A stretch of 20,000 nt of DNA from an uncultured virus (IMG/VR IMGVR_UViG_3300046507_000471) (IMGVR_UViG_3300046507_000471); one strand, 5' to 3'. Positions 1,943 to 19,852 are shown, numbered from the stretch's first letter. Numbers and translations are program-made. The notes: generated from the letters alone by a model not told the origin.

Positions 1943-3307
1943 TTAGAGATTTACTCGGTCAAGGTCCCCATCAGAAAACCCATTGTAAACTGGGAATCTG
2001 ATTTGACCACCTGGAACGCTAGGAGGATACGCTTTTACTTGAATTAGCTTCTCATTAAACATGGCTGGATTCTTCCAGGCTTGGATTCTAGTGTCTCTAT
2101 CAAACCCAGTTCCAACCTTTCCTACCATACGTCCTGAGGCATCAGCCAAAATCAATGCACCCATACTATCTTTTGGGTTGCCCTTGATGTCGATTTCTTG
2201 TTGCTGGCCAATAACCTTCAGATTATACGTTACGTAGTTCTTTACTTTGTATCGTACTGATTCTGTCTCAGGCTTAGCGTAGTCCGCAACTATTAAGCCT
2301 TCGCCTTTCTGGCTCTTGATAGTATCTAGGTATTTGTTGATCGCATCTACCCCGTACTCTAAGTGAGGTGCAAACATCAAATCAGAATTTCCGTAGTCCT
2401 TTTCGAACTTTTGAAGATACTCAACTTTATCTTTGTATGTTGCGAGATTCGGATTCTTAACGTCAATTAGCACAGCACGTACTGGGCCTTTCTCAGCTTG
2501 AGTTGCAATAGATCTCGGAGGTAGAGAATTAAGAATACCTGAAACTGTAGGGTGCGACTCGGTTTCAGACTTTGCAAGTCCGGTGTGTACAAGCTCTACC
2601 GCAAACTGGTTACCAACGTATTCTGGCATTGGTTTAGCCAGATGTGGAAGCTGTGCTGAACGCTCTGGGAATCCACCTTTTACACTTGGCCTACGTGAAT
2701 GGTAAGTTAAAGAGCCATCAGGCTGTACGGTAAGCACAAAGTGGGCCCCGTCCCATTTCTTTGATGCAACTGGATGTTCGAGTGCTGTCCAATCGCCTTC
2801 TACGTATTTGTGTCTGACGTATGTGTCGATTGAAGCTTGCTTCTGAATTTGACTAAGGTACGGATTGATACCTTCTACAAACAACTGACTCCCCAAAGGA
2901 CCAATACCTCTGAAGGACTGAATCTCAGCACGAATTTCTTCAGGAGTATGATTATCTATCAGATTATTAATAGTCCCGTACTTCTCTCTCAGGTGTTTGG
3001 CCTGAGCAAGCATCGTAGTAGCTGTTGACTCATCGAAACGTCCGTAATGGCCTTGAACTAATGCATCACGTAGATTTTCCCAGCCTGCAGACTCAACAGC
3101 TTCCGGGGAATAAAACCCCTTCGAAGCCATGTGTTTAGCAGCTAAAGATGCGACTGAACGTTGAATAGGCCTAGAGAAAAGAGTGACGGCTGTCATCCAC
3201 TTGTACAGTTCTTTCTCATCACCTTTTGACAAGTCAAAGCCTAGACTTTCCGGACTTGCCGGTTCTTTAAGCTGAGCTGCCATTTTCTCTAGGTACTTGT
3301 TAGTCAT
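1943..3307 (-). CDS. Fusion: NKYLEKMA tag + HhH-GPD/glycosylase-like domain + ATP-dependent DNA ligase (454 aa)
   Basis: Ligase motifs: I KKWDG, III AVELV, IIIa VLIDV, IV EGLIV, V YKVK, OB-fold KVGTGFD, VI IRFPVY. The N-terminal ~150 aa (LGFDL..ELYKW..GHYGRFDESTA..FRGIGP) match small bacterial HhH-superfamily proteins. QKQAS lies between the domains (2831-2845). Confidence 0.9.
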   Translation of the reverse strand: MTNKYLEKMAAQLKEPASPESLGFDLSKGDEKELYKWMTAVTLFSRPIQRSVASLAAKHMASKGFYSPEAVESAGWENLRDALVQGHYGRFDESTATTMLAQAKHLREKYGTINNLIDNHTPEEIRAEIQSFRGIGPLGSQLFVEGINPYLSQIQKQASIDTYVRHKYVEGDWTALEHPVASKKWDGAHFVLTVQPDGSLTYHSRRPSVKGGFPERSAQLPHLAKPMPEYVGNQFAVELVHTGLAKSETESHPTVSGILNSLPPRSIATQAEKGPVRAVLIDVKNPNLATYKDKVEYLQKFEKDYGNSDLMFAPHLEYGVDAINKYLDTIKSQKGEGLIVADYAKPETESVRYKVKNYVTYNLKVIGQQQEIDIKGNPKDSMGALILADASGRMVGKVGTGFDRDTRIQAWKNPAMFNEKLIQVKAYPPSVPGGQIRFPVYNGFSDGDLDRVNL

Positions 3308-5234
3308 TTTTCATTAGTCCTTTTACTTCATCAAACAGTTCTTCTTTAGTATCTGAATTCTCTGACAAATACTTATCAATCGAATACGGAGTCTTGCCCC
3401 ACATAGGCTTCGGATGTACGCTGTGGAAATGCTCGACTAGCACATTGCGCTCCGCTTCTGGCAGATGTTCGTGTGAACCAAATCGTACAGCACGCCCAAC
3501 TACCTGGTTGATTTTACTGGGGTTGAAGTGAGGTTCTAGCACTTGCACTCGCTTTGTCCCCTTGGAATCCAACCCCTCTGAACCTGAAGATGAAATCAGC
3601 AGAACCTTCTTCTTACCTGAGTTGTATTCTTTGACCAAGTGATCCTTCTCTGCTCTTGACAGTGACCCATCATAGATAGCATGGTCAATCTTGGCTTCTT
3701 TCAGTTTTCTAGAATAGTCTCGCAGGCCAGCATCGAGGTAGTTCGAATATACAAGTGCCTTGAAGTTCTTATCCTCTGCCATACCCTTCTGTAAGCTCTC
3801 TACGGCCTTCAGGATCTTAGGTGAGTACTCAGCCTTACCGTCTAACGTCAAGTGCCTGTGACCGTTAGAAACCTGTCTTACGCCAGCAGAGAATGAATTA
3901 AGACTTGCCATTTCTTTCTTGTCCATAGGCATATTGTGCCTCAATTTCATCCGTAATAGAAATGGTAATTTCCCTTCAGCAAACTTGTAATACTTCTGCT
4001 GTTCCTTAGACATTTCCACTTCTACTATCTTTTCAGTCTTCTTCGGGAAGTGCTTTGCAGCTGCAGGGTCATCCTGACTGTCATAGAAACTTACGTATTG
4101 ATTGAGAATTTCCTTAAGCTCTTTCCTACGGTCGAGTCTACGCACTGCTTCAGGCTTGGCTCCAAGAAGTCTATCTTTGAAACCTGGCTTAATGATTTCT
4201 TCTTTCGTGTAACGATCTTCCATCTTCTTGGCTTCTTCCGGAAGAACATTATCATTTGCAGCAATGTTTACAAGAGCTGATATATCAGAGAGCTTATTGT
4301 AATTGCCAGTAGCAGTTGCAAGTAAACGACGATCAGCACCGCTGATAATGTCTCGGAGTTCTCTAGTACGTTTAGTGTTCGTGTTACGGAGCCTGTGAGC
4401 TTCGTCAGCAACTGCGATGGAGTAATCATTTTTACGTAGTTTGTGTGCATCGTTAACAGCTTTTTCGTAGGACATTACATCCAGTCGATTTCTGTCCAAG
4501 TTAATCTTGTGCTTCTTAAGTTCTTTATCAACGTTCGTGACGAGACTGGCAGGAGCAATGACCAGCGCCCTCTTTTTAGGGTACTGTTCTTGATACTTCT
4601 GTACTGCCTTAAGAAACGTCTTTGTCTTGCCGCTGCCAAGGCTGTGATGAAGGACAACGCCTTTTTCTTTATCCAAATGGTCAAGAGCGTCAATTTGGTG
4701 AGGCTGTAGGTCACTTTTCTGTTCCTGTTTCTTCTTGGCAATCTTTTCTAGATATACGTTACCACCAGCATAATCGTCAAGCGCCCAAGCCTTCTTTTCG
4801 AGAGAAGTCTTACGTGTGAGATATGGACTTTGACTCTTACCCATTCCGGTAATGTTTCGAAATATCCAAGAAGTAGGGGCATCTTTCGTAGGGGACTTCT
4901 TCAACAAAAACTTCTCACCGTCTTTGGTGAAGATTACCAGCATAGTCTCTGTGCTGTGTGGTGCTACAATCGCCTTACGAACCCAATCTAGATACGTAGT
5001 TCCAGCGCCATATTGGCCTTTTGGAATTACAACCTTTTTACTCAATGCGTATGCACGGTCATGGACCGGCTGTTCAAATACGCCAATGATTTCACCCGGC
5101 TTTGGCATATCTTTAAGCGTTGCAAAAGAATAAGCTTTGTCTCCATGAACAAGTCTTAGATCGTAGTGAGTGCCCATTACGTCGGCTTCGTGCCGCTGAC
5201 GGGTGAAGAGGAATTCGTCGTTTGGTTGTAACAT
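3300..5234 (-). CDS. Fusion: LigD-type 3'-phosphoesterase (PE) domain + SNF2-family (D6/D11-like) helicase/ATPase (644 aa)
   Basis: PE signature QRHEA..THYDLRL..SFA..PVHDRAY..IPKGQYGAGT. SF2 motifs LQPHQ, HSLGSGKT, VIAPASL, DEAHRLRN, ATAT, LVYS, SGSEGLD, QVVGRAVRFGSH. The linker contains NVYLEKIA. Confidence 0.92.
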   Translation of the reverse strand: MLQPNDEFLFTRQRHEADVMGTHYDLRLVHGDKAYSFATLKDMPKPGEIIGVFEQPVHDRAYALSKKVVIPKGQYGAGTTYLDWVRKAIVAPHSTETMLVIFTKDGEKFLLKKSPTKDAPTSWIFRNITGMGKSQSPYLTRKTSLEKKAWALDDYAGGNVYLEKIAKKKQEQKSDLQPHQIDALDHLDKEKGVVLHHSLGSGKTKTFLKAVQKYQEQYPKKRALVIAPASLVTNVDKELKKHKINLDRNRLDVMSYEKAVNDAHKLRKNDYSIAVADEAHRLRNTNTKRTRELRDIISGADRRLLATATGNYNKLSDISALVNIAANDNVLPEEAKKMEDRYTKEEIIKPGFKDRLLGAKPEAVRRLDRRKELKEILNQYVSFYDSQDDPAAAKHFPKKTEKIVEVEMSKEQQKYYKFAEGKLPFLLRMKLRHNMPMDKKEMASLNSFSAGVRQVSNGHRHLTLDGKAEYSPKILKAVESLQKGMAEDKNFKALVYSNYLDAGLRDYSRKLKEAKIDHAIYDGSLSRAEKDHLVKEYNSGKKKVLLISSSGSEGLDSKGTKRVQVLEPHFNPSKINQVVGRAVRFGSHEHLPEAERNVLVEHFHSVHPKPMWGKTPYSIDKYLSENSDTKEELFDEVKGLMKND

Positions 5235-5260
5235 TCTTGTAGTGACGCCTTTGAAAAGCT

Positions 5261-5296
5261 AAAAAAAGCCTAGACACATTATAACATGTCTAAGCT
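5261..5296 (-). terminator. Intrinsic terminator downstream of 5307..6446, with TGTTATAAT in its loop region
   Basis: Minus-strand RNA AGCUUAGACAUG-UUAUAA-UGUGUCUAGGCU followed by a U run, starting about 10 nt after the stop codon. Confidence 0.75.
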
Positions 5297-5306
5297 ATTT
5301 TAAAAC

Positions 5307-6446
5307 TTAAGCCGTAAGTCTCTGGTACGTCTCTTGGATTTTGCTTTTAATAGTTTCTTCGGAAGAACTCAGCAAGAAGAACTCGAAGTCTTGCTTTGCA
5401 GAAATCTCTGCTTCGAATGCAGGTTTGAACGTCTTGAACGGGATAGTATCAGAGTCTAGTCCTGTCACTTCTTGAATCACAGCATCATTGTACTTAGCGC
5501 CGATGAGAGAATACTTTACACGATTCTCGCTCATTGTCGTGTATTCTCTATATGACCCAGGGTTCCAGCCTTCCCACAGTTTAAGTCTGTGTTTATTAGA
5601 AGTCACTGGTAGTGAAGTAGGAGTTGTGAGACTTTCCCAGTCAGCTGTTCTGAGAAACTCTACTGCTTGGCGGAACATGTCGCATCCAAAATAATCATCT
5701 GGACCCGTGTACTGTTTAGCCTCGTTCATGTGGAAATCAGAAAATGAAACGTATTTTCCTTTAAGGATCCACGTTACGATATCTCCGATATTTCTGAAGT
5801 TTGCGTAGGTGGCGTCGGAATACGCCCTATTACTCATCCCAAGCAATCTTACTGAACAGTCTCCTGAGGAAGATACAATAAACTCACTTGTGACTCCGTT
5901 TCCATTGTCCCCAGCATATTTGACACAAACGTCCTCGGAAAGATAAAAGCCCGATTCCTTAAGTACAATATTCAGAAGTTTATACAAACCTCCGTAACCG
6001 AAAAATAAAATCTGAGCTTGGGCATCTAAGTATCCGCCTGCTCTACTATTTGTAGCATGCCTGCCATCAGTTACGTGCCATAACGTTACCTTAACCCCAT
6101 CGAACATAAAGGTAGTATAGTTTTGAGTTTTCTCGTTACGCTCAGAATTTTGTGCTCCTATATGTACGAGAAACGCATTGATAACATCTTCGTTATTGCT
6201 ACGGTTATATGAGTAGTTATCCATTGTCATTTCTATGGATTCTACATAAGCTTGCTCGTTAGGCTTATAATACGATTTAAGTTCACGAACATTTCCACTT
6301 AACTTGACTTGGGTCAAACAGTCTCGAAAAGCTCTGGCAAGACGGGTCTTGATTTGTCTGCGTTCGTCGTAAGTCTTAGGGATTTGCGTCCAGTATTCGT
6401 CAGATGCAGAACTTACTGGTGTTACAGTTGAAGAAAGATTAACCAT
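5307..6446 (-). CDS. Hypothetical protein, possibly a divergent phage Pol-beta/PolX-like nucleotidyltransferase-family member (379 aa)
   Basis: Long ORF followed by a terminator. Segments YGGLYKLLNIVLKESGF, FRNIGDIVTWILKGKY and KYNDAVIQEVTGL recall a phage nucleotidyltransferase-like family from memory; no GDxD motif is visible. Confidence 0.45.
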   Translation of the reverse strand: MVNLSSTVTPVSSASDEYWTQIPKTYDERRQIKTRLARAFRDCLTQVKLSGNVRELKSYYKPNEQAYVESIEMTMDNYSYNRSNNEDVINAFLVHIGAQNSERNEKTQNYTTFMFDGVKVTLWHVTDGRHATNSRAGGYLDAQAQILFFGYGGLYKLLNIVLKESGFYLSEDVCVKYAGDNGNGVTSEFIVSSSGDCSVRLLGMSNRAYSDATYANFRNIGDIVTWILKGKYVSFSDFHMNEAKQYTGPDDYFGCDMFRQAVEFLRTADWESLTTPTSLPVTSNKHRLKLWEGWNPGSYREYTTMSENRVKYSLIGAKYNDAVIQEVTGLDSDTIPFKTFKPAFEAEISAKQDFEFFLLSSSEETIKSKIQETYQRLTA

Positions 6447-6872
6447 ATGAGTCTACTTATCAAAGATAATGAATTCCTTAGAGATTGGGCGAAGCTTGCC
6501 AATACGTCGATAGAATTCAAAGATGCAACGATGCTGCCAGGAACAGCTTGGATAGCTGGAATCCCAATCGACATTGCTATTTATAAAGGATACCTTGTAT
6601 TAAACGCTGTTGGAGAGTTTGGCGGAACTGCAAAAAGTCTTGCAAAGAGTAAAAATAAAGGTAAGGGGATATTTAAGTCTTTATACCAACACCTTCCAGT
6701 TTTACTGAAAAAGTACGGGCTGGGGGATCGTGTGTATCTGACCCCGCTCAGCCCTGCCTGGGAAAAGAACTACAAGCTATGTGAAGCTACAGAACCGGTG
6801 AAAGGACATTGGTATTTCTTGCACGTTGAGCAGCCGTGCGAGAAACCTTATAAAGGCTTTGTGCTGCTTTGA
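6447..6872 (+). CDS. Hypothetical protein, possible GNAT-like acetyltransferase (141 aa)
   Basis: KNKGKGIFKSLY resembles the GNAT acetyl-CoA-binding motif A, followed by a beta-strand VYLTP. Confidence 0.45.
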   Translation: MSLLIKDNEFLRDWAKLANTSIEFKDATMLPGTAWIAGIPIDIAIYKGYLVLNAVGEFGGTAKSLAKSKNKGKGIFKSLYQHLPVLLKKYGLGDRVYLTPLSPAWEKNYKLCEATEPVKGHWYFLHVEQPCEKPYKGFVLL

Positions 6873-7155
6873 CTTTGGCCGTGTGTTCGCTCAACAGACC
6901 TTGATCTGCGGGATGCGGACCCTTCATAGTGGAAAGAATGGGATGAACGTGAAGATCCCGCAAAAACGATTCGTGGACGATTACGATTTCGGCAATGCTT
7001 CCATGAGCGTTACCGGACTCTTGATAGAAGAGATTCTTGCGACGATCACGCTCTTGTTCTACCACATGTTCCTGCGTGGAATAAATGCATCCGTCATCGA
7101 CCCAACCTACGCCGGGAATGTACTCTTTCATGCAAACACGGTAAACTGCGTACAT
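6787..7155 (-). CDS. Hypothetical protein (122 aa), paralog of 7178..7450
   Basis: AGGGA upstream; N-terminus MYAVYRVCMKEYIPGVGWVDDGCIYS aligns without gaps with that of the neighbouring gene. Confidence 0.75.
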   Translation of the reverse strand: MYAVYRVCMKEYIPGVGWVDDGCIYSTQEHVVEQERDRRKNLFYQESGNAHGSIAEIVIVHESFLRDLHVHPILSTMKGPHPADQGLLSEHTAKVKAAQSLYKVSRTAAQRARNTNVLSPVL

Positions 7156-7177
7156 AGCTTGTCCCTATGATGTGAAG

Positions 7178-7450
7178 TTACTTGCGGGTGAGGTCGCCAG
7201 CGTGCTTGCCGACAGGGGTCCAATACGGATCTTTATCTCCGAGTTCCAAAAACTCTTGAAATTCAGGGGTGATTTCGACAAGAACTACGTCGCTGGAAGG
7301 GAACGAGTACTCTTCGTACTCTTTTGCTGCATCGATCTCTTTCAGTCTCACTTGAAGCTTTTCTTTCGACAGACTATAGATATAGCCATCCGGACGCTGA
7401 CCCCATCCAGCTTCAGACTCTGTCATTTCAACTCTGTATGCTGCCAACAT
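7178..7450 (-). CDS. Hypothetical small phage protein (90 aa)
   Basis: Strong SD GGAGGAG upstream; N-terminus MLAAYRVEMTESEAGWGQRPDGYIYS. Confidence 0.8.
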   Translation of the reverse strand: MLAAYRVEMTESEAGWGQRPDGYIYSLSKEKLQVRLKEIDAAKEYEEYSFPSSDVVLVEITPEFQEFLELGDKDPYWTPVGKHAGDLTRK

Positions 7451-7565
7451 TTTTCAGCTCCTCCATGTGATCTTCAGCTTCTTTAAAGGAAGTGAAAGGT
7501 TTGGGAAGACGCTTCCCGCGTTTGTACACAAAAAAGTTTCCAAACTCATAATCCACTTTGTACAT
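7428..7565 (-). CDS. Small hypothetical protein, 45 aa (MYKVDYEFGNFFVYKRGKRLPKPFTSFKEAEDHMEELKNVGSIQS); not in ORF track
   Basis: AGGAG SD at 7572-7576, 6 nt before the ATG; lies directly downstream of the TTGGTATAAG motif; overlaps the start of the next gene. Confidence 0.7.
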   Translation of the reverse strand: MYKVDYEFGNFFVYKRGKRLPKPFTSFKEAEDHMEELKNVGSIQS

Positions 7566-7605
7566 GCTCGGCTCCTAAAAGTACAGAACTGTGTTCCATA
7601 CTTTA

Positions 7606-7632
7606 CTTATACCAAGGTTATAGCTAAAATAG
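7606..7632. promoter_or_regulatory. Divergent promoter region: TTGGTATAAG (minus, 7606-7615) and TAAAATAG (plus, 7625-7632)
   Basis: Both motifs recur upstream of other genes in the window and here sit back to back between divergent genes. Confidence 0.55.
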
Positions 7633-7657
7633 GAATTGAATTTTAACCTCTAAATCC

Positions 7658-9484
7658 ATGTCAGAAAAATACACAACAGCCGGGGCACTAAAGCTAAAAA
7701 GCGAACTGCCAACCAAAGAAGCTAGAGACAACTACGACCTATATAGGCCTCTAGATAAGAAAGGTATTTCAGATCTAGTAAATGTGCTTCTGAAACACGG
7801 TGGCGAAAATAGTCACGAGGTTATTAATGATCTCGGCAAGAAGTTCTTTAACAAGGCTACTGAAATTGGCGCTACTACACCGTTAACTGACTACATTAAC
7901 GAAAGCGACGACAGACAAGCTATTATCGATGAATTTGAAACAAAGGTTCATCAAATTTTTGCAAAGAAACTTCCGAAAACTAAAGAAAATGATGAGCTTG
8001 GTGCATTGACCGGGGAATACAACGGTAAGATAGAAAAGCAAAATCTGGAACATCTTTTGTCCAAAGGATCGACTGCAGCCAAGATGGCTCGTACAGGCGC
8101 TCGTGGTAATCCTACACAGCTTGCTACTGGTACTTCAACGCCGCTAATGTCAATTAACTTGAAGGGCGAGCTAGTCCCATACGTAATTAAGTCATCATTT
8201 GCAAAAGGCATGTCTCCTGCTGAGATGCTCGCAATGAGTTACATGGGAAGAGGTAGTACTGTGCTTTCACAGCTTTCAACTGCGCTTCCAGGTGCTCTGT
8301 TCAAGGAACTTTCCCCAACGGTATTCCACGAAACTATCACGATTGATGACTGCGGAACTACCAATGGTATTCTGCTTCCCATCGTTGATAAGAAGGGTGC
8401 TGTTGGAAGATACGAGGCAGGTACAAATCATCTCATCGATGAAGCCTATTATAAGGAACTGGTTAGCTCAGGTCATAAAAACATAAAGGTTCGCAGCGCA
8501 CTTACATGTGAAGCTCACCAAGGTGTTTGCAAGAAATGTTATGGTCTAATGGGAAATGGTAAGCCAGCTGAGATAGGTGAAAATGTGGGCGTAATCGCTG
8601 CCCAATCTGTTTCTGAAGTTCTGACTCAGTCAATGCTTTCAACGAAGCACAAGGCATCAGTTGGTGCTCGTAAGGGTAACTCATACGAACAGGCTTCAAA
8701 CCTGCTCCGTAACCCAGCTGAGAACTTTAAAGATGAAGCCACGATTACTGGTATCAATGGCGTAGTTTCAGCAATTAAGCAAACGCCTCTTGGTGACCAT
8801 CAGGTATTTGTTAATGAACAAATGCACTTCGTCCCACGAGTTCAAAATCTTAAAGTAGCTGTTGGGGACAACGTTCTTAAGGGCGATACTCTTTCAACTG
8901 GAGTTGTAAATCCACGTAAGTTAGTTGCATTGAAAGGCCTTGGTGCCGGTCGCATTCACATGGCCCACGAACTTCGTGGTATCTATGGTTCTGACCTTGA
9001 TCCCCGTCACTTCGAAATGATTGCTAAGAATCTTATTAAGCACGTAGAAGTTCAAGATCCAGGTGAGACAGGCTTTCTACCGGGCCAGAAGGTTGATGTA
9101 AACACTATTCAAAAATACCTGACAAATACGGCTGGTGAAGTGCCTCTTGAAAAGGCTGAAGGTAAGTTACTCGCAAAGGGTGTGTTAGAACTTACAGCAG
9201 GTACTCTTCTTGATGGCAACCACATCAATGAACTTAAGGGTCACGGCGTTAAGACAGTTCACGTAGCTAATACTGGACTCACAGTAACTCCGATCGTTCC
9301 AGGTCTTAAGACAGCCAAGCTACTTGATGAAAACTGGGTTTCAAAGCTTTCCTTCTCAGGTCTTAAGAATACAATTCGTGAAAGTGCTGCAGTAGGTGCT
9401 GAATCAGACGTACACAGTACAGAGCCTATCACTCCGTACATTCTCGGTAGTGAATTCGGTGAAGGTCCTGGAGGACAGTATTAA
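7658..9484 (+). CDS. Phage multisubunit RNA polymerase beta' subunit, C-terminal half (608 aa)
   Basis: RpoC motifs: MARTGARGN; IKSSFAKGM plus bridge helix (..STALPGALFKEL); ITIDDCGT; Zn site VRSALTC..GVCKKCYG; trigger-loop region GENVGVIAAQSVSEVLTQSMLSTKH; RHFEMI; WVSKLSF. Confidence 0.95.
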   Translation: MSEKYTTAGALKLKSELPTKEARDNYDLYRPLDKKGISDLVNVLLKHGGENSHEVINDLGKKFFNKATEIGATTPLTDYINESDDRQAIIDEFETKVHQIFAKKLPKTKENDELGALTGEYNGKIEKQNLEHLLSKGSTAAKMARTGARGNPTQLATGTSTPLMSINLKGELVPYVIKSSFAKGMSPAEMLAMSYMGRGSTVLSQLSTALPGALFKELSPTVFHETITIDDCGTTNGILLPIVDKKGAVGRYEAGTNHLIDEAYYKELVSSGHKNIKVRSALTCEAHQGVCKKCYGLMGNGKPAEIGENVGVIAAQSVSEVLTQSMLSTKHKASVGARKGNSYEQASNLLRNPAENFKDEATITGINGVVSAIKQTPLGDHQVFVNEQMHFVPRVQNLKVAVGDNVLKGDTLSTGVVNPRKLVALKGLGAGRIHMAHELRGIYGSDLDPRHFEMIAKNLIKHVEVQDPGETGFLPGQKVDVNTIQKYLTNTAGEVPLEKAEGKLLAKGVLELTAGTLLDGNHINELKGHGVKTVHVANTGLTVTPIVPGLKTAKLLDENWVSKLSFSGLKNTIRESAAVGAESDVHSTEPITPYILGSEFGEGPGGQY

Positions 9485-10269: not shown

Positions 10270-10348
10270 AATCAAACGTAGACTAAATGCAGCTTATTCT
10301 GTTAAAATATCTGCATAATTGAGCTTATATTTCAAAGGACTGTTATAA

Positions 10349-12316: not shown

Positions 12317-12326
12317 ACATGAAGAT

Positions 12327-13016
12327 ATGCGCGTTAATCAGAGAGAATTACACATCCGTAACGAAGTTAGCGGGGCTGACCCGCTAGTTGACAAGATACT
12401 ATCCGGAGAAGATTGTCCGGAGCGTACCGCCTATCTGAAAGCCATACCTTTAAAAGAATCGAAGCTAAAAAAGGGTTACGTCGAAGCTAGTCTTCTTTGC
12501 AGCAACGACGTAAACGCTATTTCCCACATCCTTGAAATTCCAGCGGAAGTTATCCAAATGTACAACGACATCTTTTATGATGTTATGGAACTGGATAAGC
12601 TAAGTAAGATGGAACTCTTGGATGTGCGTGACAAAACAGAAGCTGCTCTTAAAACTTGGGCGCTCAGTCAAGGTTTACCATTCATCTCATGGAGAATGGG
12701 TAAACAAGTAACTATTTCTCCTGTTGAAGGTTTGGTCGATCTCTTCACGACATGCGTGTACAAGAGCCGTGAGGCCATGTTCAGCCAAAACGCATCGGAA
12801 TCTAGTCGAGAAGCTACTAAGTGGACGAAGCTGTCAATGGACATAGCACGTCTTCTTAAGATTTGGACAACGGATGCTGGCGCAGCTAAGAAAGATCTTG
12901 AAATCGCTATTAGAGAAGTGGTACCTGATTTCGAGGGTTTTGAGAGTCTGGAAGGTTTTAGTATGGCAGAGTTGAATGGCGATCTATATAAGGTTGACTC
13001 AGATAGTAACGACTAA
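12327..13016 (+). CDS. Hypothetical protein (229 aa)
   Basis: ORF tightly packed and co-oriented with its neighbours; no motif recognised. Confidence 0.75.
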   Translation: MRVNQRELHIRNEVSGADPLVDKILSGEDCPERTAYLKAIPLKESKLKKGYVEASLLCSNDVNAISHILEIPAEVIQMYNDIFYDVMELDKLSKMELLDVRDKTEAALKTWALSQGLPFISWRMGKQVTISPVEGLVDLFTTCVYKSREAMFSQNASESSREATKWTKLSMDIARLLKIWTTDAGAAKKDLEIAIREVVPDFEGFESLEGFSMAELNGDLYKVDSDSND

Positions 13017-13018
13017 TT

Positions 13019-13189
13019 ATGAATAAGTATCTAGAAAAAATCGCATCAAAGAAGAAGAGTGGTCAGCTTACTATGCGTGCTGGTCAAAAGCCTATTAAGC
13101 ACCCTAAGAAGCCTTTTGTCTCCTTGTCTGCCAAGGTTAAAATAAAGTCACAGAAACATGGAGCCAAAAATGGCAAACGTAACCCCTGA
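13019..13189 (+). CDS. Tagged, highly basic 56-aa peptide (MNKYLEKIASKKKSGQLTMRAGQKPIKHPKKPFVSLSAKVKIKSQKHGAKNGKRNP); not in ORF track
   Basis: Begins with the exact MNKYLEKIAS tag, 2 nt after the upstream stop, and fills the apparent intergenic gap. Confidence 0.85.
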   Translation: MNKYLEKIASKKKSGQLTMRAGQKPIKHPKKPFVSLSAKVKIKSQKHGAKNGKRNP

Positions 13190-14252
13190 ACTTCTTCGGG
13201 ATATCTCAGTTCAAGCAGTTGAAGATTTCCTGAATAACAAAGTTCCTCTGAGCAAAGGTCTAGCTAAACAAGCAGCCGCTTATGAACTGAATGTAGAACA
13301 AGTAAAGCGGGCAGTAGAATCAACGAATAATATTGCTTATTTGAAAATTCTTCAGCACGCAGAAGATCGTACAGTAGAATTCCCACTAGCTAAGTTTGCA
13401 GAAGTTATGTCAGCCGCTACTATTCCTGATAATTTCCAGGAGAAGGTTGCCCAAGTAACTACCGAAGAACTGAAGGCAGAACTAGAAAAAGAAGCATCGG
13501 CAACAGACCTTCAATTGGTCGAAGCAGAACAGCTTACATACCTCATCAAGTCGGCTTCAGCTAACAAAGAAGCTCTTGAACGTATTGAAATGGATAGTAT
13601 TGTAGTAGCGGATATGCTTGTGAAGGCCGCAAAGGCTCTTGGTAAGGATGACGCTTGGATGGATAAGCTGGCATGTGTCACGGATGAGAAGACCTTCTCA
13701 GAGCTTTCTATCCTCGTTTCTGGCGAGGTTAAGGGATACCGTGAACTTGGAGAGCTTGGACTGTTTAAAGTTGCACAACTTAAAGAAGCTACTGGATTTG
13801 CAGAACTGTACAAACAGGCTCGTGCACTGGTCCGTGAACAACGTGAACGTTCAGAGCTTCAGAAACGTGCAGCAGATGCTGCTCAAGGTGTAAAATCTAA
13901 TATCTTCAATAAGGCGATGCAAGGTGGTGCTAAGTCTGCAATGAATGCAGCTCAAAAAGCAAACCCTGCTTATGTAGCTGGTAAGGCTATTGGTGTTGCA
14001 GCGTCTACACCATTCAGAGCAGCGGCAGCAGCTGGAAAGGCAATTAACAACTCTGTTAAGAATAACATTGCAGCTCTAGGTAAGCCAACAGCTAAGAACA
14101 CAGCAAAGGCTATCGGTAGAACTTCAGCAAGCGCTGTATCGGGTGTTATCAGAGCAGGTGGCCCAGTTTTAGATGCAGCATTCTACGATCCAGGCACAGA
14201 TAAAACAACTGGAAGAAGTAACGATGTCTGGAGCGCTCTCCAGCGTGATTAA
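13170..14252 (+). CDS. Hypothetical Ala/Lys-rich helical, probable head core protein
   Basis: GGAG at 13160-13163 favours ATG 13170 over 13158. Many K-x-A motifs (AKQAA, EKVAQ, EKEAS, IKSAS, DKLAC, YKQAR, QKRAA). Confidence 0.75.
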   Translation: MANVTPELLRDISVQAVEDFLNNKVPLSKGLAKQAAAYELNVEQVKRAVESTNNIAYLKILQHAEDRTVEFPLAKFAEVMSAATIPDNFQEKVAQVTTEELKAELEKEASATDLQLVEAEQLTYLIKSASANKEALERIEMDSIVVADMLVKAAKALGKDDAWMDKLACVTDEKTFSELSILVSGEVKGYRELGELGLFKVAQLKEATGFAELYKQARALVREQRERSELQKRAADAAQGVKSNIFNKAMQGGAKSAMNAAQKANPAYVAGKAIGVAASTPFRAAAAAGKAINNSVKNNIAALGKPTAKNTAKAIGRTSASAVSGVIRAGGPVLDAAFYDPGTDKTTGRSNDVWSALQRD

Positions 14253-14279
14253 TAAGATTGATTAAAGGAACAACATAAA

Positions 14280-14807
14280 ATGTTAAACGAAGTTAAACAA
14301 CTGGGTCTTGAGAAGTTTGCTGGAGACGAAGATCTAGCTGAGCAATTTGTAGCGGGTTTCGTTACACAAGTATTGCTAGAAAAAGAAGCTGCTGATAAAA
14401 CAGACAAGAATGTATTTGATCCAAAACACGAAGTTGCACAAAGTTTCTTTCGTGAGGCTGGTAAAGCAACTGGTGGTCTCGCAGTAGGCGGCGGGCTTTG
14501 GATGTTGGCTAATACAGGTAAGTACGTAGTTGACCATTTCCGCTACAATCGTTTTCTACAATCCCTACACCAAGCAATTAATAGCTCACATATTCTTCAA
14601 TCTGCGCCTCGTGCCAAGGTTGAAAATTATGCTAACACGATTTATCAATTTGCACCTATGGTTGCAACTGATCCGAATCTGCTACAATCTGTTCTCACCA
14701 ATGCCGTTCACGGCGATGGCGTAGATATTATGACTATCAAGAGCCTTACGGATCTAGAAGGTCGTTGGAAAGATAACACTTCATTCTCACCTAAGTCGTT
14801 TGTATAA
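14280..14807 (+). CDS. Hypothetical probable virion protein (175 aa)
   Basis: AAGGA upstream; LEKFAG and LEKEAA motifs; Gly-rich hydrophobic stretch GGLAVGGGLWMLA. Confidence 0.75.
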   Translation: MLNEVKQLGLEKFAGDEDLAEQFVAGFVTQVLLEKEAADKTDKNVFDPKHEVAQSFFREAGKATGGLAVGGGLWMLANTGKYVVDHFRYNRFLQSLHQAINSSHILQSAPRAKVENYANTIYQFAPMVATDPNLLQSVLTNAVHGDGVDIMTIKSLTDLEGRWKDNTSFSPKSFV

Positions 14808-14809
14808 AC

Positions 14810-15592
14810 ATGAATAAGTATTTAGAAAAAATAGCCGCTGATAAAGAGCATTTTTCTAAAAAGCAGAAAACAGCAGCTGGTGGTGGAGCTGCTGTTCTCG
14901 GTGCGTCTGTAGTTAATAAGCAGTACCACGGTGGCCATATAACTGGCCGTGAGACTCTTTACCACGGAACCTCTGCTGCTAATAAAGAACAAATTCTTAA
15001 AGACGGTCTTAAACCAAGAGCGAAGAAAGGTATTATCGATATCGCTCAAGATGCGACAGGCCAAAATTTAAAGTCAGACAACTTAACGTTTATGACTAGA
15101 AGTAAAATGCAAGCACACAGCTATGCGAATCAAGCATCACGTATTGAGAATGGTACTTTTAACATACACGATATGGTGGGACGTCTTAAAGATGCTATTC
15201 CTGGTAAAGAAAGTTCTAAGGGTGTAATTAATATCAACGCTCCTACTTGGAAAAAAGACGAATTTCGTAAGGTACGGAACCCTGAAGTAAAAACAAGTTT
15301 CAAAACGGTAAACGAAGACGCCTTCTCTCCCAAGTTTGCAAAAACTCAACAGAAGCGCACTATATACTCAACACTTGAAAAAGAAGTCTTTACCAATAAA
15401 GGCAACGTTTCAAACAAGTATATGGAGGGTTCTAAGGCGTATCAGAAGAATTCTCTTGGTGAAATTAGAGAATTTGCGAAAGCGAATACTAAACGTTTCT
15501 TGAAGGGTACTGGTAAGGCTGCAATGGGCGCTGCAATGATCGGTGGAGGTTTAGCCTACGCCGCTAACCAATTTAAAAAACATGGAAAATAA
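14810..15592 (+). CDS. Tagged protein with an ADP-ribosyltransferase/Tpt1-like fold motif (260 aa)
   Basis: MNKYLEKIAA start; LYHGTS..EQILKDGLKP followed by TFMT...AHSYA, the pattern seen in H-type ART-fold and KptA-like domains. Confidence 0.6.
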   Translation: MNKYLEKIAADKEHFSKKQKTAAGGGAAVLGASVVNKQYHGGHITGRETLYHGTSAANKEQILKDGLKPRAKKGIIDIAQDATGQNLKSDNLTFMTRSKMQAHSYANQASRIENGTFNIHDMVGRLKDAIPGKESSKGVININAPTWKKDEFRKVRNPEVKTSFKTVNEDAFSPKFAKTQQKRTIYSTLEKEVFTNKGNVSNKYMEGSKAYQKNSLGEIREFAKANTKRFLKGTGKAAMGAAMIGGGLAYAANQFKKHGK

Positions 15593-16112
15593 GTACCTAG
15601 AAAAAATCGCCTCTATCTCCAATTTCGGAAAGAGCTTCGCAAAAGGTTGGAACAGAAGCTCTACCACTTCAAAAATTGGTCTAGGCATGTCTGCTACTGG
15701 TCTTACTCTTGGTGCTGCTAATTATGCAAATAGTCTAGAGAATAAGCAAGATAATAAACATCGCAGTGTAATAGAAGCTCAGTCTTTGAATGAACTTAAG
15801 GGTATCTCAGAAGCGCTGAAAAAGAAACCTAAGGTAACTGTAAACCTTAAACTTACTCCTTCTCAAGAAAAACAAGCCAGCGTTGCACGAGCTGCTAGAG
15901 ATGCGTTGCATTTTGCAAAACAGCGCCCCATTGTTTCAGTAGGTACGGCAGCAGGTGCGTTAGAGGGCGTCAATAAGACTACTCGTAAAAATAATGAATC
16001 TTTAGTTGGAGTTGGTCTTAGAGGCGTTAAGAACACTATCGTTGGCGGTGTCGCTGGAGCAGCAGTAGGGACAGTATTAGAACACGGTTATAACAAATAC
16101 ATTCGTAATTAA
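15582..16112 (+). CDS. Tagged Gly-rich basic protein (176 aa)
   Basis: MENKYLEKIAS start; internal EKQAS; GxxxG-rich hydrophobic segments. Confidence 0.8.
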   Translation: MENKYLEKIASISNFGKSFAKGWNRSSTTSKIGLGMSATGLTLGAANYANSLENKQDNKHRSVIEAQSLNELKGISEALKKKPKVTVNLKLTPSQEKQASVARAARDALHFAKQRPIVSVGTAAGALEGVNKTTRKNNESLVGVGLRGVKNTIVGGVAGAAVGTVLEHGYNKYIRN

Positions 16113-16136
16113 ACGCACTGCCTGTAAAATAGAATT

Positions 16137-17651
16137 ATGCTAACAAAACTAATCGATACGTCTTCTTTTTACCGTGACGAACCACAGGTAACTATTCTCG
16201 ATCCTAAGGATCTTACAGGCAGTCTTATCAAACAGGCTACGGATTCTCGCATCCAAGAATTCGCTTCCAAAATTACCCCAGTACAGGGTAAGACGTATCT
16301 TCACATTCTTGCTATGGGCGCAGGAGAGTATTACGGTGCCAATCGTAATGCCGACTACTTTCCAGAAAGCAACCTCATTGATTATCACAATACCTTTGAG
16401 ACGGCTCCTGCCCATATTTTCCGTAACCACGTAAACAAAAATCCAGAAATCGCCATAGGTCAAGTTGTGTACTCTGTCTATAACGATAGAATGCACCGTG
16501 TTGAACTTATCGCTGAACTATGGAATGACAAAGCCCCTGACATCGTTGATCGTATCGAGAGCGGGGACTGGCCTAAGACTTCAATGGCTTGCCGTACTCC
16601 ATTCGACGTATGCTCTATTTGCGGTAACAAGGCAAAGACTCGTGAACAGTATTGTGAACACTTGAGCGAACAGCTTGGTAAGGTATTCCCTGATGGTCGT
16701 AAGGTCATGGCTCTAAACCTGGCTCCATTACGATTTTTCGACATTTCTATTGTGTTTCGTCCAGCTGACGTAACTAGCGCCGTTCTACAAAAAATAGCAT
16801 CTGAAAGCGCAGTTGTTGGATCTGTTGATGAAGCACTCATGGCTGGTCTTAACGATCTGCCTCTTCAAAAGAGCGCTACTCTCAAAAAGCTTTCAGAATT
16901 AACGAAGGAGATTGACGGCGATGTTGTATCTATCGATCCTAGTCTTGATAATCTTGTATCACGAGTTAGTGATCCGCAAGGTGACGTCATTGACGTTCTC
17001 CGAAATTATAAGCTTAATGAAACTTTTAGTACCTTTGCTCATCTTGGTATTAGCCCTTCGATTGGTTTTCTTGCTGAACTAATTGGACGTAAACTAATGG
17101 GTGAAGAGGGACGTGGTATTGGCCCAATGGCTGCTGCGTACTTTGACCGTGCTGGTATTAGCTCACTCCCCGAATTCGACCGTGATTTTGGCGAAATAAC
17201 AGAACCAAATATCGGTATCGTTCACGCTATGCTTCCTCATATGCAGGATTCCTCGTATCTACCTCAGTATGTGGAAGAGCGTGTATCGTTGAACAAACAA
17301 GCTTCGACTTATGGATTTATGCAAGGAACTAATGTAGGTTATGTAGGCAATGGCCCACACATTGAACCTACTATGTATGAGAAGTTCCGTGAACAAAACC
17401 TGAAGTCAGAAGAAGAGAACAAGTCAGGTCTAATGAAGGTTCTTTCTGCCATTGCTGCCATCGGTGGCGCTGCCCTCGCAGCAAAGTGGTATATTACGCA
17501 AGTTATCGAACGTAAAATGAAAGAACAAGAATTGAACAAGACTTCAGATGGTGTTAAAATAGTTTTAGTTAAATCTGCTTCTGACTATAAGCTAACTTAC
17601 AAACTCGCAAAAACAGCGATGCTTAAGTTGGTTCAGAAGAAAAAGAATTGA
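16137..17651 (+). CDS. Prohead (maturation) protease, HK97/assemblin-like fold with Zn-finger insert and long C-terminal extension (504 aa)
   Basis: Ordered motifs NRNADYF, IFRNH (His), TSMAC (Ser) and FFDISIVFRPAD (cf. EISxVxxPA); Cys/His cluster CSIC..YCEHL; located just before the scaffold-like gene. Confidence 0.75.
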   Translation: MLTKLIDTSSFYRDEPQVTILDPKDLTGSLIKQATDSRIQEFASKITPVQGKTYLHILAMGAGEYYGANRNADYFPESNLIDYHNTFETAPAHIFRNHVNKNPEIAIGQVVYSVYNDRMHRVELIAELWNDKAPDIVDRIESGDWPKTSMACRTPFDVCSICGNKAKTREQYCEHLSEQLGKVFPDGRKVMALNLAPLRFFDISIVFRPADVTSAVLQKIASESAVVGSVDEALMAGLNDLPLQKSATLKKLSELTKEIDGDVVSIDPSLDNLVSRVSDPQGDVIDVLRNYKLNETFSTFAHLGISPSIGFLAELIGRKLMGEEGRGIGPMAAAYFDRAGISSLPEFDRDFGEITEPNIGIVHAMLPHMQDSSYLPQYVEERVSLNKQASTYGFMQGTNVGYVGNGPHIEPTMYEKFREQNLKSEEENKSGLMKVLSAIAAIGGAALAAKWYITQVIERKMKEQELNKTSDGVKIVLVKSASDYKLTYKLAKTAMLKLVQKKKN

Positions 17652-17707
17652 CCTAAGATTTTCAAAAGGCTACAATCCACGTAGCCTCGTTAAAAAGGAT
17701 ATTAGTC

Positions 17708-18568
17708 ATGATGAGTTTCACTCTAGACGGTCTTCTTAAAGATCTGGAAACTGAAGCTGGTCTACATAAAGTAGCTAGTGAAGATACAGAGAAAGAAGAA
17801 AAGAAAGATGAAGATAAGGCTGAAAAGGCTATCGACAAAGCTGACAAAGATGTAAAGGAAGCTAAGGAAGAAGTCAAGGACGCTAAAGAGAAGAACGATG
17901 CTGATGAACGTGTCAAAGAAGCTGCGGCTAAAGGCGCTGACTTAGCAAAAGAAGTAATGCAAAAAGTTGCATCCATTAAACTTGATCAAGTAAAACCAGA
18001 GGATACTATGAACAAACAAGCTGCTGACGCAGGCAAGGCACTAGCCGAAGCTCTTCTTGAGAAGCTGGCTTCAGTAGGTGACCAAAATACCATGAATGGT
18101 ATTGGCAATGCTGTACCCAACAAGACTCAAATTGATCTTGCAGCTCAAGTAGCTGAACAAGATGCTGTCATTCAGAACCAACCCGGCACAGACGGTAAGG
18201 GCAATGGCGGTACTATCAACCAAATTTTCGACGCAATCGTTGCTGACGCAATGGCTCGCGGCGCTGCTCCCGTTGATCAAAACCCTGCTCCTGGCGTTGC
18301 TAAAGACGAAGGCGCTATCAATGATCAAGCTCCTAACCAAGTTCAAACTGGTGGTTGGGTAACGGCTGGCCAAGAAAAGGCTGCTGCAGTTTCAGAACTC
18401 GTAGGCCAAGGCTTCGACTTCGAAGACGCAGTAAACATGGTCAAGGAAGCTGCTGCTGAGATCGAACGTGAAGAAGCTTCACAAATTAAGCAAGCTGCTC
18501 TTTCGCACTTCATCGGTGCTGGTTTCGATTTTGAAACGGCAGTAAACTTGGTAAAAAAGCTGGGCTAA
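17708..18568 (+). CDS. Probable scaffold/core protein, short form (286 aa)
   Basis: AAGGA SD; acidic, charged and Ala-rich; follows the protease; repeated KVAS/KQAA/KLAS; two C-terminal GFDFExAVNxV repeats. Confidence 0.7.
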   Translation: MMSFTLDGLLKDLETEAGLHKVASEDTEKEEKKDEDKAEKAIDKADKDVKEAKEEVKDAKEKNDADERVKEAAAKGADLAKEVMQKVASIKLDQVKPEDTMNKQAADAGKALAEALLEKLASVGDQNTMNGIGNAVPNKTQIDLAAQVAEQDAVIQNQPGTDGKGNGGTINQIFDAIVADAMARGAAPVDQNPAPGVAKDEGAINDQAPNQVQTGGWVTAGQEKAAAVSELVGQGFDFEDAVNMVKEAAAEIEREEASQIKQAALSHFIGAGFDFETAVNLVKKLG

Positions 18569-18625
18569 CGAAAGAAGCGGGTGTCTTGCAACTGGCAGGT
18601 AAAGTAGCAGGCACTTCGTTAGCTC
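18553..18625 (+). other. Programmed -1 ribosomal frameshift cassette (A_AAA_AAG plus 3' stem-loop)
   Basis: In-frame heptamer GT-A AAA AAG at 18553-18559. Stem GGGCTAACGAA (18562-18572) pairs with TTCGTTAGCTC (18615-18625). The -1 frame is open from 18535 to 18882. Confidence 0.85.
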
Positions 18626-18882
18626 CTAAGGTAACACGTATCCCAGGTACGGGTGGCGCAACAAAGAATATTCTTGGCGAAACCCGTTCACTTAATAAGA
18701 CCAGAGTTGCTGCAGGCGTAGCAGGTGCAGCAGCAGTTGGTGCTGGTATGGGCGTGTTGGCCGCAAAAGGTAAGAGCAAAGATCAAGAGAAACAAGCCGC
18801 TGTCGGACTTCTAGTCGAAGCTGGTGTTGACTTTGATAACGCTGTTGATCTAGTAGAAAAGAAAGCCGCTGAACTAGCGTAA
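18559..18882 (+). CDS. -1-frame C-terminal extension of the scaffold-like protein (long form about 391 aa); listed in the ORF track as 18586..18882
   Basis: Only a TTG start without a clear SD; carries a third copy of the repeat (EKQAAVGLLVEAGVDFDNAVDLV). Confidence 0.8.
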   Translation, partial: AGLTKEAGVLQLAGKVAGTSLAPKVTRIPGTGGATKNILGETRSLNKTRVAAGVAGAAAVGAGMGVLAAKGKSKDQEKQAAVGLLVEAGVDFDNAVDLVEKKAAELA

Positions 18883-18898
18883 ATTTTTTATAAAGAAC

Positions 18899-18933
18899 AA
18901 ACCCCTCTGTATCCTCGATGTAGAGGGGTTTTT
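18899..18933 (+). terminator. Intrinsic terminator after the scaffold-like gene
   Basis: AAACCCCTCT (18899-18908) / AGAGGGGTTT (18922-18931) stem followed by a T run. Confidence 0.9.
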
Positions 18934-18945
18934 GCATATTAGGCT

Positions 18946-19371
18946 ATGAATAAATATCTTGAAAAAATCGCTAGTCTGAATTTTGATGTAGATAGTCAAG
19001 GTCGAATCAAATCGGCTAGTATGACTGTCAAGCAAGATGTAAGCCTAGGGAAGGTAAAAGAGCCTGCGCCAATCACGGCTCCGGGTTCAAAACTGGTCAG
19101 AGGAGCGAAGTCTCTCTTTGCCAGAGCGTTGCATAAAGCTGCGCAAGATTTAACGCATAAACAAGAATTGATCAATACTGGTGTCATTGCAGGGCTAGGT
19201 ACAGCAACCGGCTTCGCTGCCCATAAAGCCATGAACTCGGCACCGAAAATGTTTGGTCAAGGAGCTAAGTTCCACAATGCTAAAATTATGGCATTGAGCG
19301 GGGCAGCTGGACTAGCGGCAGATTATGCCGGTGTTAAACTAAATAAACAGATTAACAAACATGTCCAATAA
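18946..19371 (+). CDS. Tagged Gly/Ala-rich basic protein (141 aa)
   Basis: MNKYLEKIAS start; IKSAS and HKAAQ motifs; two Gly-rich hydrophobic segments. Confidence 0.8.
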   Translation: MNKYLEKIASLNFDVDSQGRIKSASMTVKQDVSLGKVKEPAPITAPGSKLVRGAKSLFARALHKAAQDLTHKQELINTGVIAGLGTATGFAAHKAMNSAPKMFGQGAKFHNAKIMALSGAAGLAADYAGVKLNKQINKHVQ

Positions 19372-19852
19372 ATACCTAGAGAAAGTTGCTTCTCTATTTC
19401 CGAGTAAAGAGTATAAAAAGACTCTGTCCGGAAAAGAAAGGAGAGACTACGACGTAGAATACGCCACTGCTGGTGGTGCAAGTCTTAAAAATTTTGGAAA
19501 AAGCCTTCTAGGTATAGGTGTAGTAGGCTTAGGTGCTGGATTAGGACATCATGCGGGAGCAACGCTTGGTAGTAAAATCGGAGCAAAGATTGGTGCCAAG
19601 CAAGGTAAGAAGTTCGGTGCAGAGGCGTATAGAACTCTTATGGCAGGTGGTAAAACTCCGGAACGTGAGGCAAAAGGCTTTGCAGTGTATGCTCACGACA
19701 TGATTAAACAGAAAACCCAAAATACAGGTAGAGCTATGGGTGGAGTTGCTGGAGCTGCAGTAGGTATTATTCCAGGCGCAGCTTACGCTGATAACTTCAG
19801 ACACAACCACGCTAAAAGCGTAATCGAGAAAAGACGTAAACAAAATGACTAA
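19361..19852 (+). CDS. Tagged glycine-zipper protein (163 aa)
   Basis: MSNKYLEKVAS start; GIGVVGLGAGLGHHAGATLGSKIGAKIG and GGVAGAAVG segments. Confidence 0.8.
   Translation: MSNKYLEKVASLFPSKEYKKTLSGKERRDYDVEYATAGGASLKNFGKSLLGIGVVGLGAGLGHHAGATLGSKIGAKIGAKQGKKFGAEAYRTLMAGGKTPEREAKGFAVYAHDMIKQKTQNTGRAMGGVAGAAVGIIPGAAYADNFRHNHAKSVIEKRRKQND

Follow-up and report, generated by a model that had tools for sequence, protein, structure and literature searches.

A short N-terminal peptide shared by otherwise unrelated phage proteins as a candidate capsid-targeting leader with a putative head protease site

We describe here a short peptide, NKYLEKIA and its close variants (hereafter the tag), that recurs at the start of otherwise unrelated proteins in a 20,000-nucleotide stretch of DNA from an uncultured virus (IMG/VR IMGVR_UViG_3300046507_000471). 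This stretch, the window, is part of one 56,805-bp virus contig. Seven copies fitting N-x-Y-L-E-K-[IMV]-A were found in it, six at the starts of open reading frames (ORFs) and one inside an SNF2 gene. The six N-terminal copies begin exactly where a first-pass annotation of the DNA had placed them. One is on the minus strand, MTNKYLEKMA (3278 to 3307; ORF start MTNKYLEKMAA at 3307), and five are on the plus strand: MNKYLEKIA at 13019 to 13045 (ORF start MNKYLEKIAS), at 14810 to 14836 (MNKYLEKIAA) and at 18946 to 18972 (MNKYLEKIAS), MENKYLEKIA at 15582 to 15611 (MENKYLEKIAS), and MSNKYLEKVA at 19361 to 19390 (MSNKYLEKVAS). The seventh variant reported there, NVYLEKIA (4737 to 4760, minus strand), is likewise present, in the SNF2 ORF between a LigD_N phosphoesterase-like domain and the helicase domain. 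The back-translated tag pattern, TAYYTNGARAARRTNGC, matched the window seven times, against a mean of 0.01 and a maximum of 1 in 200 dinucleotide-preserving shuffles. A six-frame scan of the whole 56,805-bp contig gave eight copies, 7/8 of them N-terminal; the eighth, MGNKYLEKIAITN, is at the start of a glycine-zipper ORF of 85 aa just past the window end (20450 to 20707 in window numbering).

The relatives used for comparison come from 76 IMG/VR loci that were found with the protease of the window (see below), on contigs of up to about 190 kb. The longest tagged products are two enzymes. The first (1943 to 3307, minus strand) is a 454-aa ATP-dependent DNA ligase (phrog_114, E value of 7.7e-18 over residues 181 to 445; weak Pfam match to DNA_ligase_OB_2), in which an extra N-terminal domain at about residues 11 to 150 precedes the ligase core. 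The interdomain linker carries an internal I-Q-K-Q-A-S site (residues 154 to 159; 2831 to 2848, minus strand), at the place where the ligase of one relative (G005) has a second tag-like copy, K-N-K-Y-L-Q-K-A-A. The other enzyme is an SNF2-family helicase of 644 aa with an N-terminal LigD_N-like domain (3300 to 5234, minus strand; Pfam SNF2-rel_dom 9.6e-20, Helicase_C 3.3e-15, and LigD_N 4.6e-07, the last below the cut-off). In relatives G004 and G005 the helicase has no phosphoesterase-like domain and begins MNKYLEKIA[KR]K, and that of G003 also begins with the tag; judging by these starts, the internal copy in the window looks like a buried N-terminal tag.

The remaining tagged proteins of the window are small, basic and encoded on the plus strand: a very basic peptide of 56 aa that is conserved in relatives (13019 to 13189; isoelectric point [pI] of 11.1 and 30% Lys plus Arg), a 260-aa protein with an invariant Y-H-G-T motif (14810 to 15592), two Gly/Ala-rich proteins, one of 176 aa with an internal Q-E-K-Q-A-S (15582 to 16112; pI 10.2) and one of 141 aa (18946 to 19371; pI 10.1), and a glycine-zipper-like protein of 163 aa (19361 to 19852; pI 10.0). 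The earlier description of the 260-aa protein as an ART-like enzyme relies on weak, subthreshold matches: one to Pfam PTS_2-RNA (E value of 0.0011, below the cut-off) and others to Scabin-like, DarT and enterotoxin_a structures among its Atlas neighbors (TM scores of 0.33 to 0.40, all under the bar). Its AlphaFold2 (AF2) model, built from a three-sequence alignment, was unusable (predicted local distance difference test [pLDDT] of 33).

Among the 76 protease-homolog loci the tag was present in 17, whose proteases are 39 to 100% identical to that of the window, and was absent from the remainder. In 25 of the tagless loci, no alternative N-terminal 4-mer shared by at least three ORFs rose above the noise of spurious ORFs. 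The window genome and the 17 tag-bearing loci together provided 60 distinct tagged modules. The tag is N-terminal in 53 of these and is nearly fixed across the set (N in 60, K in 50, Y in 59, L in 58, E in 59, K in 60, I in 48 with V in 9, and A in 59), while the following residue is free (S in 18, E in 8, A in 7, G in 6, and others). Tagged orthologs of the ligase, the SNF2 protein and the basic peptide recur across divergent genomes, and three loci (L011, L012 and L016) have fused ORFs with two tagged modules in tandem, both tags being kept. The most informative relative is a complete genome (G001; 181,435 bp with direct terminal repeats, CheckV completeness of 100%), which gave nine tag matches against none for a reversed-pattern control. 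All nine tagged ORFs are located at 29,245 to 53,729, around the head module.

What is conserved is the peptide and not the DNA, as had been proposed. The seven tagged starts have no common sequence in the 50 bases before them; synonymous codons are used at every tag position across the 60 modules (six codons for Leu, four for Ala, and two each for Tyr, Glu and Lys); and there is no similarity beyond the tag. Once the tag was removed, the eight proteins of the contig showed no significant pairwise BLASTP similarity (best E value of 0.021, from short Gly/Ala-rich matches), in agreement with the original description of them as unrelated, although several are alike in their Gly/Ala-rich, basic composition. 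A shared promoter or ribosome-binding-site cassette was ruled out, the upstream DNA being unrelated.

Across all IMG/VR, the exact peptide NKYLEKIA was found in 114 stretches on 58 contigs (144 matches), corresponding to 104 distinct contexts. A Met lies zero to two residues upstream in 83 of these; among the other 21, several have a stop or a likely non-ATG start upstream, several are cut by the edge of the locus, and a few are in apparently unrelated proteins. As a control, 596 Gb of prokaryotic sequence yielded 115 stretches with NKYLEKIA, one match each, only 10 of them with a Met within three residues. We inspected all 10 of these contexts along with 25 of those lacking a nearby Met (105 in all). 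Unrelated proteins, such as ribonucleotide-reductase-like genes, or sequence outside long ORFs accounted for 8 of the former and most of the latter. Because prokaryotic genomes give only scattered single matches, mostly internal, the tag is a feature of a phage clade rather than a host-type signal. In staphylococcal phage 80alpha, a leader cut by the host protease Prp is shared with ribosomal protein L27; no L27-like protein was seen among the 35 prokaryotic contexts inspected. When 8.3 kb of the head module was compared by megablast with 50,697 phage records, nothing matched. A text search of the literature for KYLEKIA found no paper, and searches on capsid targeting sequences, internal proteins, prohead proteases and shared N-terminal cargo returned work on T4, SPN3US, P1 and unrelated subjects but none on this lineage.

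Most of the tagged genes are located within a head module that, by ORF calling on the whole contig, spans about 9484 to 22158. Its gene names, beyond Pfam and PHROG matches, come from our own reading of the sequences and from the annotation of the Salmonella phage Arash record. Next to the tagged genes are two untagged proteins of 364 and 175 aa (within 13158 to 14807, plus strand), a head maturation protease of 504 aa (16137 to 17651, plus strand; phrog_18299 and phrog_2774), an acidic scaffold-like protein (17708 to 18568, plus strand; pI 4.5) and its tail ORF (18586 to 18882, plus strand), both with repeated G-x-D-F-[DE]-x-A-V-x-L-V-K modules, and a further acidic scaffold-like ORF that starts in the window (19845 to 20000, plus strand) and runs to 20444 outside it. 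A 297-aa ORF at 21265 to 22158, also outside the window, was taken as the putative major capsid protein. A portal-like ORF, a sheath-like ORF and the RNA polymerase beta subunit are also encoded on the contig. The pI is 10.0 to 11.1 for the six small tagged proteins, 9.5 for the SNF2 protein and 7.8 for the ligase, whereas seven untagged members of the head module, among them the protease, the capsid protein and the scaffold-like proteins, are acidic, with pIs of 4.5 to 5.9.

Just before the end of scaffold-like ORF 17708 to 18568, at 18553 to 18559, there is an A_AAA_AAG slippery heptamer. From 18535 onward the -1 frame has no stop and continues into ORF 18586 to 18882 (..KKAGLTKEAGVLQLAG..), making the heptamer a candidate for a programmed -1 frameshift that would yield a long scaffold isoform.

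The protease has a catalytic domain at about residues 45 to 222, with His98 and Ser149 invariant in 32 aligned homologs. Its sequence gave no match in the PDB at E values of up to 1. The AF2 model of residues 1 to 300, from a 32-sequence alignment, had a mean pLDDT of 68, with 10-residue blocks over positions 41 to 200 averaging 75 to 93. The top Foldseek rows were herpesvirus proteases and T4 gp21, with weak E values (0.007 and above). On structural realignment, T4 gp21 (5jbl_B) scored a Z of 11.4 (root mean square deviation of 2.8 Å over 132 aligned residues) and herpesvirus proteases a Z of 7 to 10.4 (10.4 for varicella-zoster virus and 10.1 for pseudorabies virus), against 6.1 or less for unrelated MCE-domain proteins. 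According to this model, the enzyme has the fold of T4 gp21 and herpesvirus assemblins. In three distant homologs (L046, L048 and L070), a large insertion is found directly after the invariant Ser (S-M-G-C/..., alignment columns of about 200 to 480) and looks like an intein within the head protease gene.

The second half of the tag, L-E-K-I-A, is an instance of a motif, hydrophobic-x-K-x-A-[SAG], that pervades this module. By eye, the untagged head proteins are rich in L-Q-K-I-A-S, I-E-K-Q-A-S and L-E-K-L-A-S. In its strict form, hydrophobic-[EQNDSTK]-K-x-A-[SAG], the motif occurs 20 times in the 4,089 residues of the head module (500 shuffles, mean of 1.3 and maximum of 7), and twice in the 14,207 residues of the remaining contig, both times in the tagged ligase (shuffle mean of 1.8 and maximum of 7). 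There are three strict sites in the scaffold-like protein at 17708 to 18568, three in the one at 19845 to 20444 (I-E-K-Q-A-S, L-S-K-L-A-S and L-Q-K-V-A-S) and two in each of the untagged 364- and 175-aa proteins. In the complete relative, 18/32 occurrences fall in the 40-to-50-kb bin (5.85 per 1,000 residues, with at most 0.99 in any other bin). K-x-A motifs also bracket the catalytic domain of the protease in the 32 homologs, at about residues 31 to 36 (L-I-K-Q-A-T in the window) and 217 to 222 (L-Q-K-I-A-S in the window, V-L-Q-K-V-A-S in homologs). Capsid-protein orthologs, some of them very distant, have [ETV]-K-x-A at about residues 25 to 35 in 56/57 distinct sequences (for example, G-H-T-K-E-A-S, G-L-V-K-E-A-G, G-L-E-K-M-A-G and G-K-E-K-I-A-E), the 57th being called from an upstream start so that its first 70 residues stop short of the motif region. 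The cultured relatives Arash, whose protease is 43.6% identical to that of the window, and Vibrio phage D181 show the K-x-A motif throughout their head modules, without NKYLEKIA.

Two observations concern the same motif elsewhere. A 59-aa glycine-zipper ORF of D181 (L322, 7506 to 7685) begins M-D-K-V-A-K, a bare K-x-A without N-K-Y that may represent a minimal leader. A 295-aa protein encoded far from the head module (ORF h97 of G001, 69365 to 70252; an L080 ORF around 4688) has three strict K-x-A sites and, by eye, looser ones as well (for example, F-V-K-Q-A-S, M-D-K-Q-A-G and H-T-K-E-A-S); it may be another protease substrate encoded away from the head module.

The tag holds more than this motif. 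At 35 non-tag hydrophobic-x-K-x-A sites of the head module, the three upstream positions carry only 0.6 to 0.95 bits each, whereas in the tags the same three positions are nearly invariant (N 60/60, K 50/60 and Y 59/60). Since N-K-Y, L, E and I are fixed beyond what the 35 ordinary sites hold, the tag seems to be more than a cut site and to have two parts, a Lys-x-Ala protease motif common to the head module and an extra, putative address that contains N-K-Y. Its relationship to the scaffold is illustrated by one ORF of the complete relative (L006:12542-12979 of G001), in which a scaffold-like tail part (63% identity, E value of 4e-24) is fused to a glycine-zipper part (50%, E value of 1e-16). 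The fusion joint, E-L-E-K-E-A, aligns with the L-E-K-I-A of a separate gene of the window genome starting M-G-N-K-Y-L-E-K-I-A. Covalent linkage to the scaffold and possession of the tag thus look like alternative delivery routes for the same module, and the copy in the ligase linker and the tandem tagged fusions are consistent with a site that can act within a protein as well, freeing modules.

T4 gp21 cuts after Glu in L/I-x-E, and herpesvirus assemblins cut between the Ala and Ser of hydrophobic-x-A-S. In the tag, the Lys and Ala are spaced like P3 and P1 and the next residue is free, which suggests that cleavage is probably after the Ala, removing M-N-K-Y-L-E-K-I-A; it may instead be after the Lys.

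The closest parallel is the capsid targeting sequence (CTS) of T4, MKTYQEFIAE. T4 internal proteins are cut once beside the CTS, which also brings about the packaging of foreign proteins joined to it (PMC8442874), and the internal proteins of T-even phages are diverse, the CTS alone being conserved (PMC3012670). In both cases a leader of about ten residues, at the extreme N terminus of otherwise unrelated and mostly basic proteins, is adjoined or controlled by a phage-encoded protease of the gp21/assemblin fold whose motif the leader contains. The tag ends in the motif of the head proteins, at which cutting is here presumed. The basic internal proteins and acidic scaffold core of T4 also have their counterpart in the tagged basic and untagged, mostly acidic head proteins described above. 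With N-terminal numbering, the tag and the T4 CTS are identical at 4/9 positions (Y4, E6, I8 and A9; P of about 0.001 for one comparison with the composition of this proteome), a suggestive match, but in a peptide too short to separate homology from convergence. They differ in the cutting rule, presumed to be Lys-x-Ala here and after Glu in T4, in the lineage, which here is Arash-like with a multisubunit RNA polymerase, and in the cargo, to which large enzymes and glycine-zipper proteins belong here. Targeting, a prediction in the present case, has been demonstrated with foreign proteins in T4.

Other systems are similar in part. The first 30 residues of DarB of phage P1 suffice to load a reporter into the capsid (PMC9024508). 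There the signal is N-terminal and the protein that it brings into the capsid is a large anti-restriction protein containing a helicase, to which the tagged SNF2 helicase would be analogous; however, the Dar proteins are without a consensus N terminus, whereas one exact 8-mer is common to all cargo here. Head-internal proteins of the phiKZ-like phage SPN3US have N-terminal propeptides cut by a gp21-type protease (gp245), at a short motif that recurs inside the propeptides; they differ from the present case in having no shared tag, a length of 20 to 254 residues and an A-x-E motif (PMC10052503).

In encapsulins, a short shared peptide also directs unrelated cargo into an HK97-fold shell, although these peptides are usually C-terminal, are kept uncut and bind the shell protein, with no protease involved. 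Reading of the sequence, made without a signal-peptide predictor, found neither the hydrophobic core nor the A-x-A or lipobox of Sec/Tat or lipoprotein signals: the tag is eight residues long, mostly polar or charged, and what comes after it is variable and often charged. A double-glycine bacteriocin leader, suggested by the small Gly-rich cargo, was set aside, as there is no GG, GA or GS ending; no C39 peptidase was found among the 20 window proteins scanned with Pfam, the remaining contig not having been scanned.

We consider it most probable, at roughly 60% for targeting and cleavage jointly, that the tag is a leader similar to the T4 CTS, one that sends proteins to the capsid and is subsequently removed at a Lys-x-Ala protease site. 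Its last five residues (hydrophobic-x-K-x-A) would be recognized as a site by the phage-encoded head maturation protease of the T4 gp21 type, while N-K-Y and the near-invariance that is surplus to the cut motif would most likely form an address that binds to some conserved part of the assembling prohead core; the candidates are the protease itself and an acidic scaffold-like protein. The leader would carry its cargo into the prohead and then be removed by the protease, probably after the Ala. The cargo, made up of the basic peptides, the glycine-zipper proteins, the ligase, the SNF2 helicase and a possibly ART-like protein, would remain inside and leave the head together with the DNA at ejection. 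The T4-like address label proposed by the first-pass annotation is thus in keeping with the adjoining protease, the basic cargo, the clustering around the head module and the presence of the Arash SNF2 homolog in virions, while the loading and removal that it also proposed stay at the level of prediction. The Arash homolog, Gp217, was detected in purified particles with 38 unique peptides and 1,148 spectra (PMC10585845 Table 2), together with the glycine-rich Gp213 and Gp224, the protease and both RNA polymerase subunits. By analogy, this lends weak support to such proteins traveling in the virion.

Several observations weigh against this interpretation. The Arash list comprises 116 proteins, including metabolic enzymes such as ribonucleotide reductases, and its authors raise carry-over as a possibility (PMC10585845), so that this proteome is weak support either way. 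NKYLEKIA is missing from the Arash and Vibrio D181 loci examined, and Gp217, Gp213 and Gp224 are reported as virion associated without it, indicating that the tag is not needed for packaging in the Arash lineage. Both the tag and the strict motif are absent from the RNA polymerase subunits of the window genome, whose Arash counterparts are the most abundant particle proteins (PMC10585845). Two relatives' contigs have tagged genes scattered over about 40 kb instead of hugging the head module. The four-residue match to the T4 CTS could be due to chance or convergence. Packaging and cleavage are predictions here, and no cultured phage bearing the tag was found.

Moreover, the tag contains the general motif, and all the enrichment evidence therefore fits equally well a leader that is a cleavage site only, that is, an optimal N-terminal substrate of the head protease whose nine residues are removed to mature or activate the protein, the cargo entering the prohead by the binding of its basic charge to acidic scaffold or DNA or by intrinsic domains. 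L-E-K-I-A being a case of the general motif, the reported presence of untagged Arash homologs in virions and the bare M-D-K-V-A-K start of the D181 glycine-zipper ORF would all agree with such a role. Nevertheless, we find it rather unlikely, as ordinary sites call for neither the near-invariant N-K-Y nor so strict an L, E and I, a nine-residue cap would hardly silence a ligase, a helicase and membrane-active peptides alike, and more than 100 distinct cargo contexts retain the identical 8-mer across phages with proteases only 39 to 58% identical.

A different destination or partner, such as import into a phage-made compartment, docking to a chaperone or the order of ejection, would make the resemblance to the protease motif secondary. 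Two tagged proteins act on DNA (the ligase and the SNF2 protein), and the genome has split RNA polymerase subunits, beta and beta', in a lineage with a phiKZ-like multisubunit RNA polymerase. Yet, although nucleus-shell and tubulin homologs were not looked for in the genome, this appears improbable for a tag whose genes mostly lie among portal-proximal genes, protease, scaffold and capsid gene, mostly encode small basic or glycine-zipper proteins of no obvious replication role, and include modules that alternate with scaffold fusions. We give least credit, as very improbable, to a tag without function of its own, spread as a gene-start cassette by recombination or duplication or reflecting paralogy among small proteins. 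The tandem duplicated tagged modules of relatives such as L016 and the like composition of several cargo proteins would suit it, but it is at odds with the unshared upstream DNA, the synonymous codon variation at every position (which already points to a lower dN/dS in the tags than in flanking codons), the lack of detectable similarity among cargo proteins and the persistence of the tag on the same orthologs (ligase, SNF2 and basic peptide) across divergent genomes.

Taking the targeting leader as the working interpretation, a broader and more tentative proposal, to which we give somewhat less than an even chance, is that widespread uncultured Arash-like phages of roughly 130 to 190 kb possess a plug-and-play cargo system, in which NKYLEKIA loads any protein that bears it and the gp21-fold Lys-x-Ala protease releases it. 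The receptor would be the protease itself or the repeated scaffold modules, and gene fission from the scaffold would create new free-standing cargo. The result would be a changing injected arsenal of ligase, SNF2 helicase with phosphoesterase-like domain, ART-like enzyme, DNA-coating peptides and membrane-active glycine-zipper proteins. If so, the T4 scheme, with a single short leader serving many cargoes and a single protease, would reach an unrelated and environmentally common lineage with a different protease code, and the Lys-x-Ala rule would widen the known specificity range of gp21/assemblin-fold proteases. The injected proteome would be readable from sequence, with the 104 distinct contexts on 58 contigs already visible; the ligase and the SNF2 helicase would be likely early-acting injected enzymes and candidates for counter-defense; and a second, very short and sharply defined tag would be available for packaging proteins into capsids.

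Finally, some features of the surroundings may be mentioned. Between ORF 18586 to 18882 and the tagged ORF at 18946 a GC-rich hairpin and, after it, a run of T residues (cccctc...gaggggttttt, 18895 to 18930) have the look of a terminator within the head module. Starts in this module, such as those at 13019, 14810, 16137 and 21265, have no Shine-Dalgarno-like purine run in the 50 bases upstream and are preceded by A-rich sequences (aaac, taaa), which may hint at the translation-initiation mode of the host. The RNA polymerase beta' gene is split, by Pfam and PHROG matches, into two pieces located 6.5 kb apart (1 to 1101 and 7658 to 9484), between which are mostly minus-strand genes, including those of the tagged ligase and SNF2 protein. 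In Arash, the SNF2 homolog is found directly after the C-terminal piece of beta', on the same strand.

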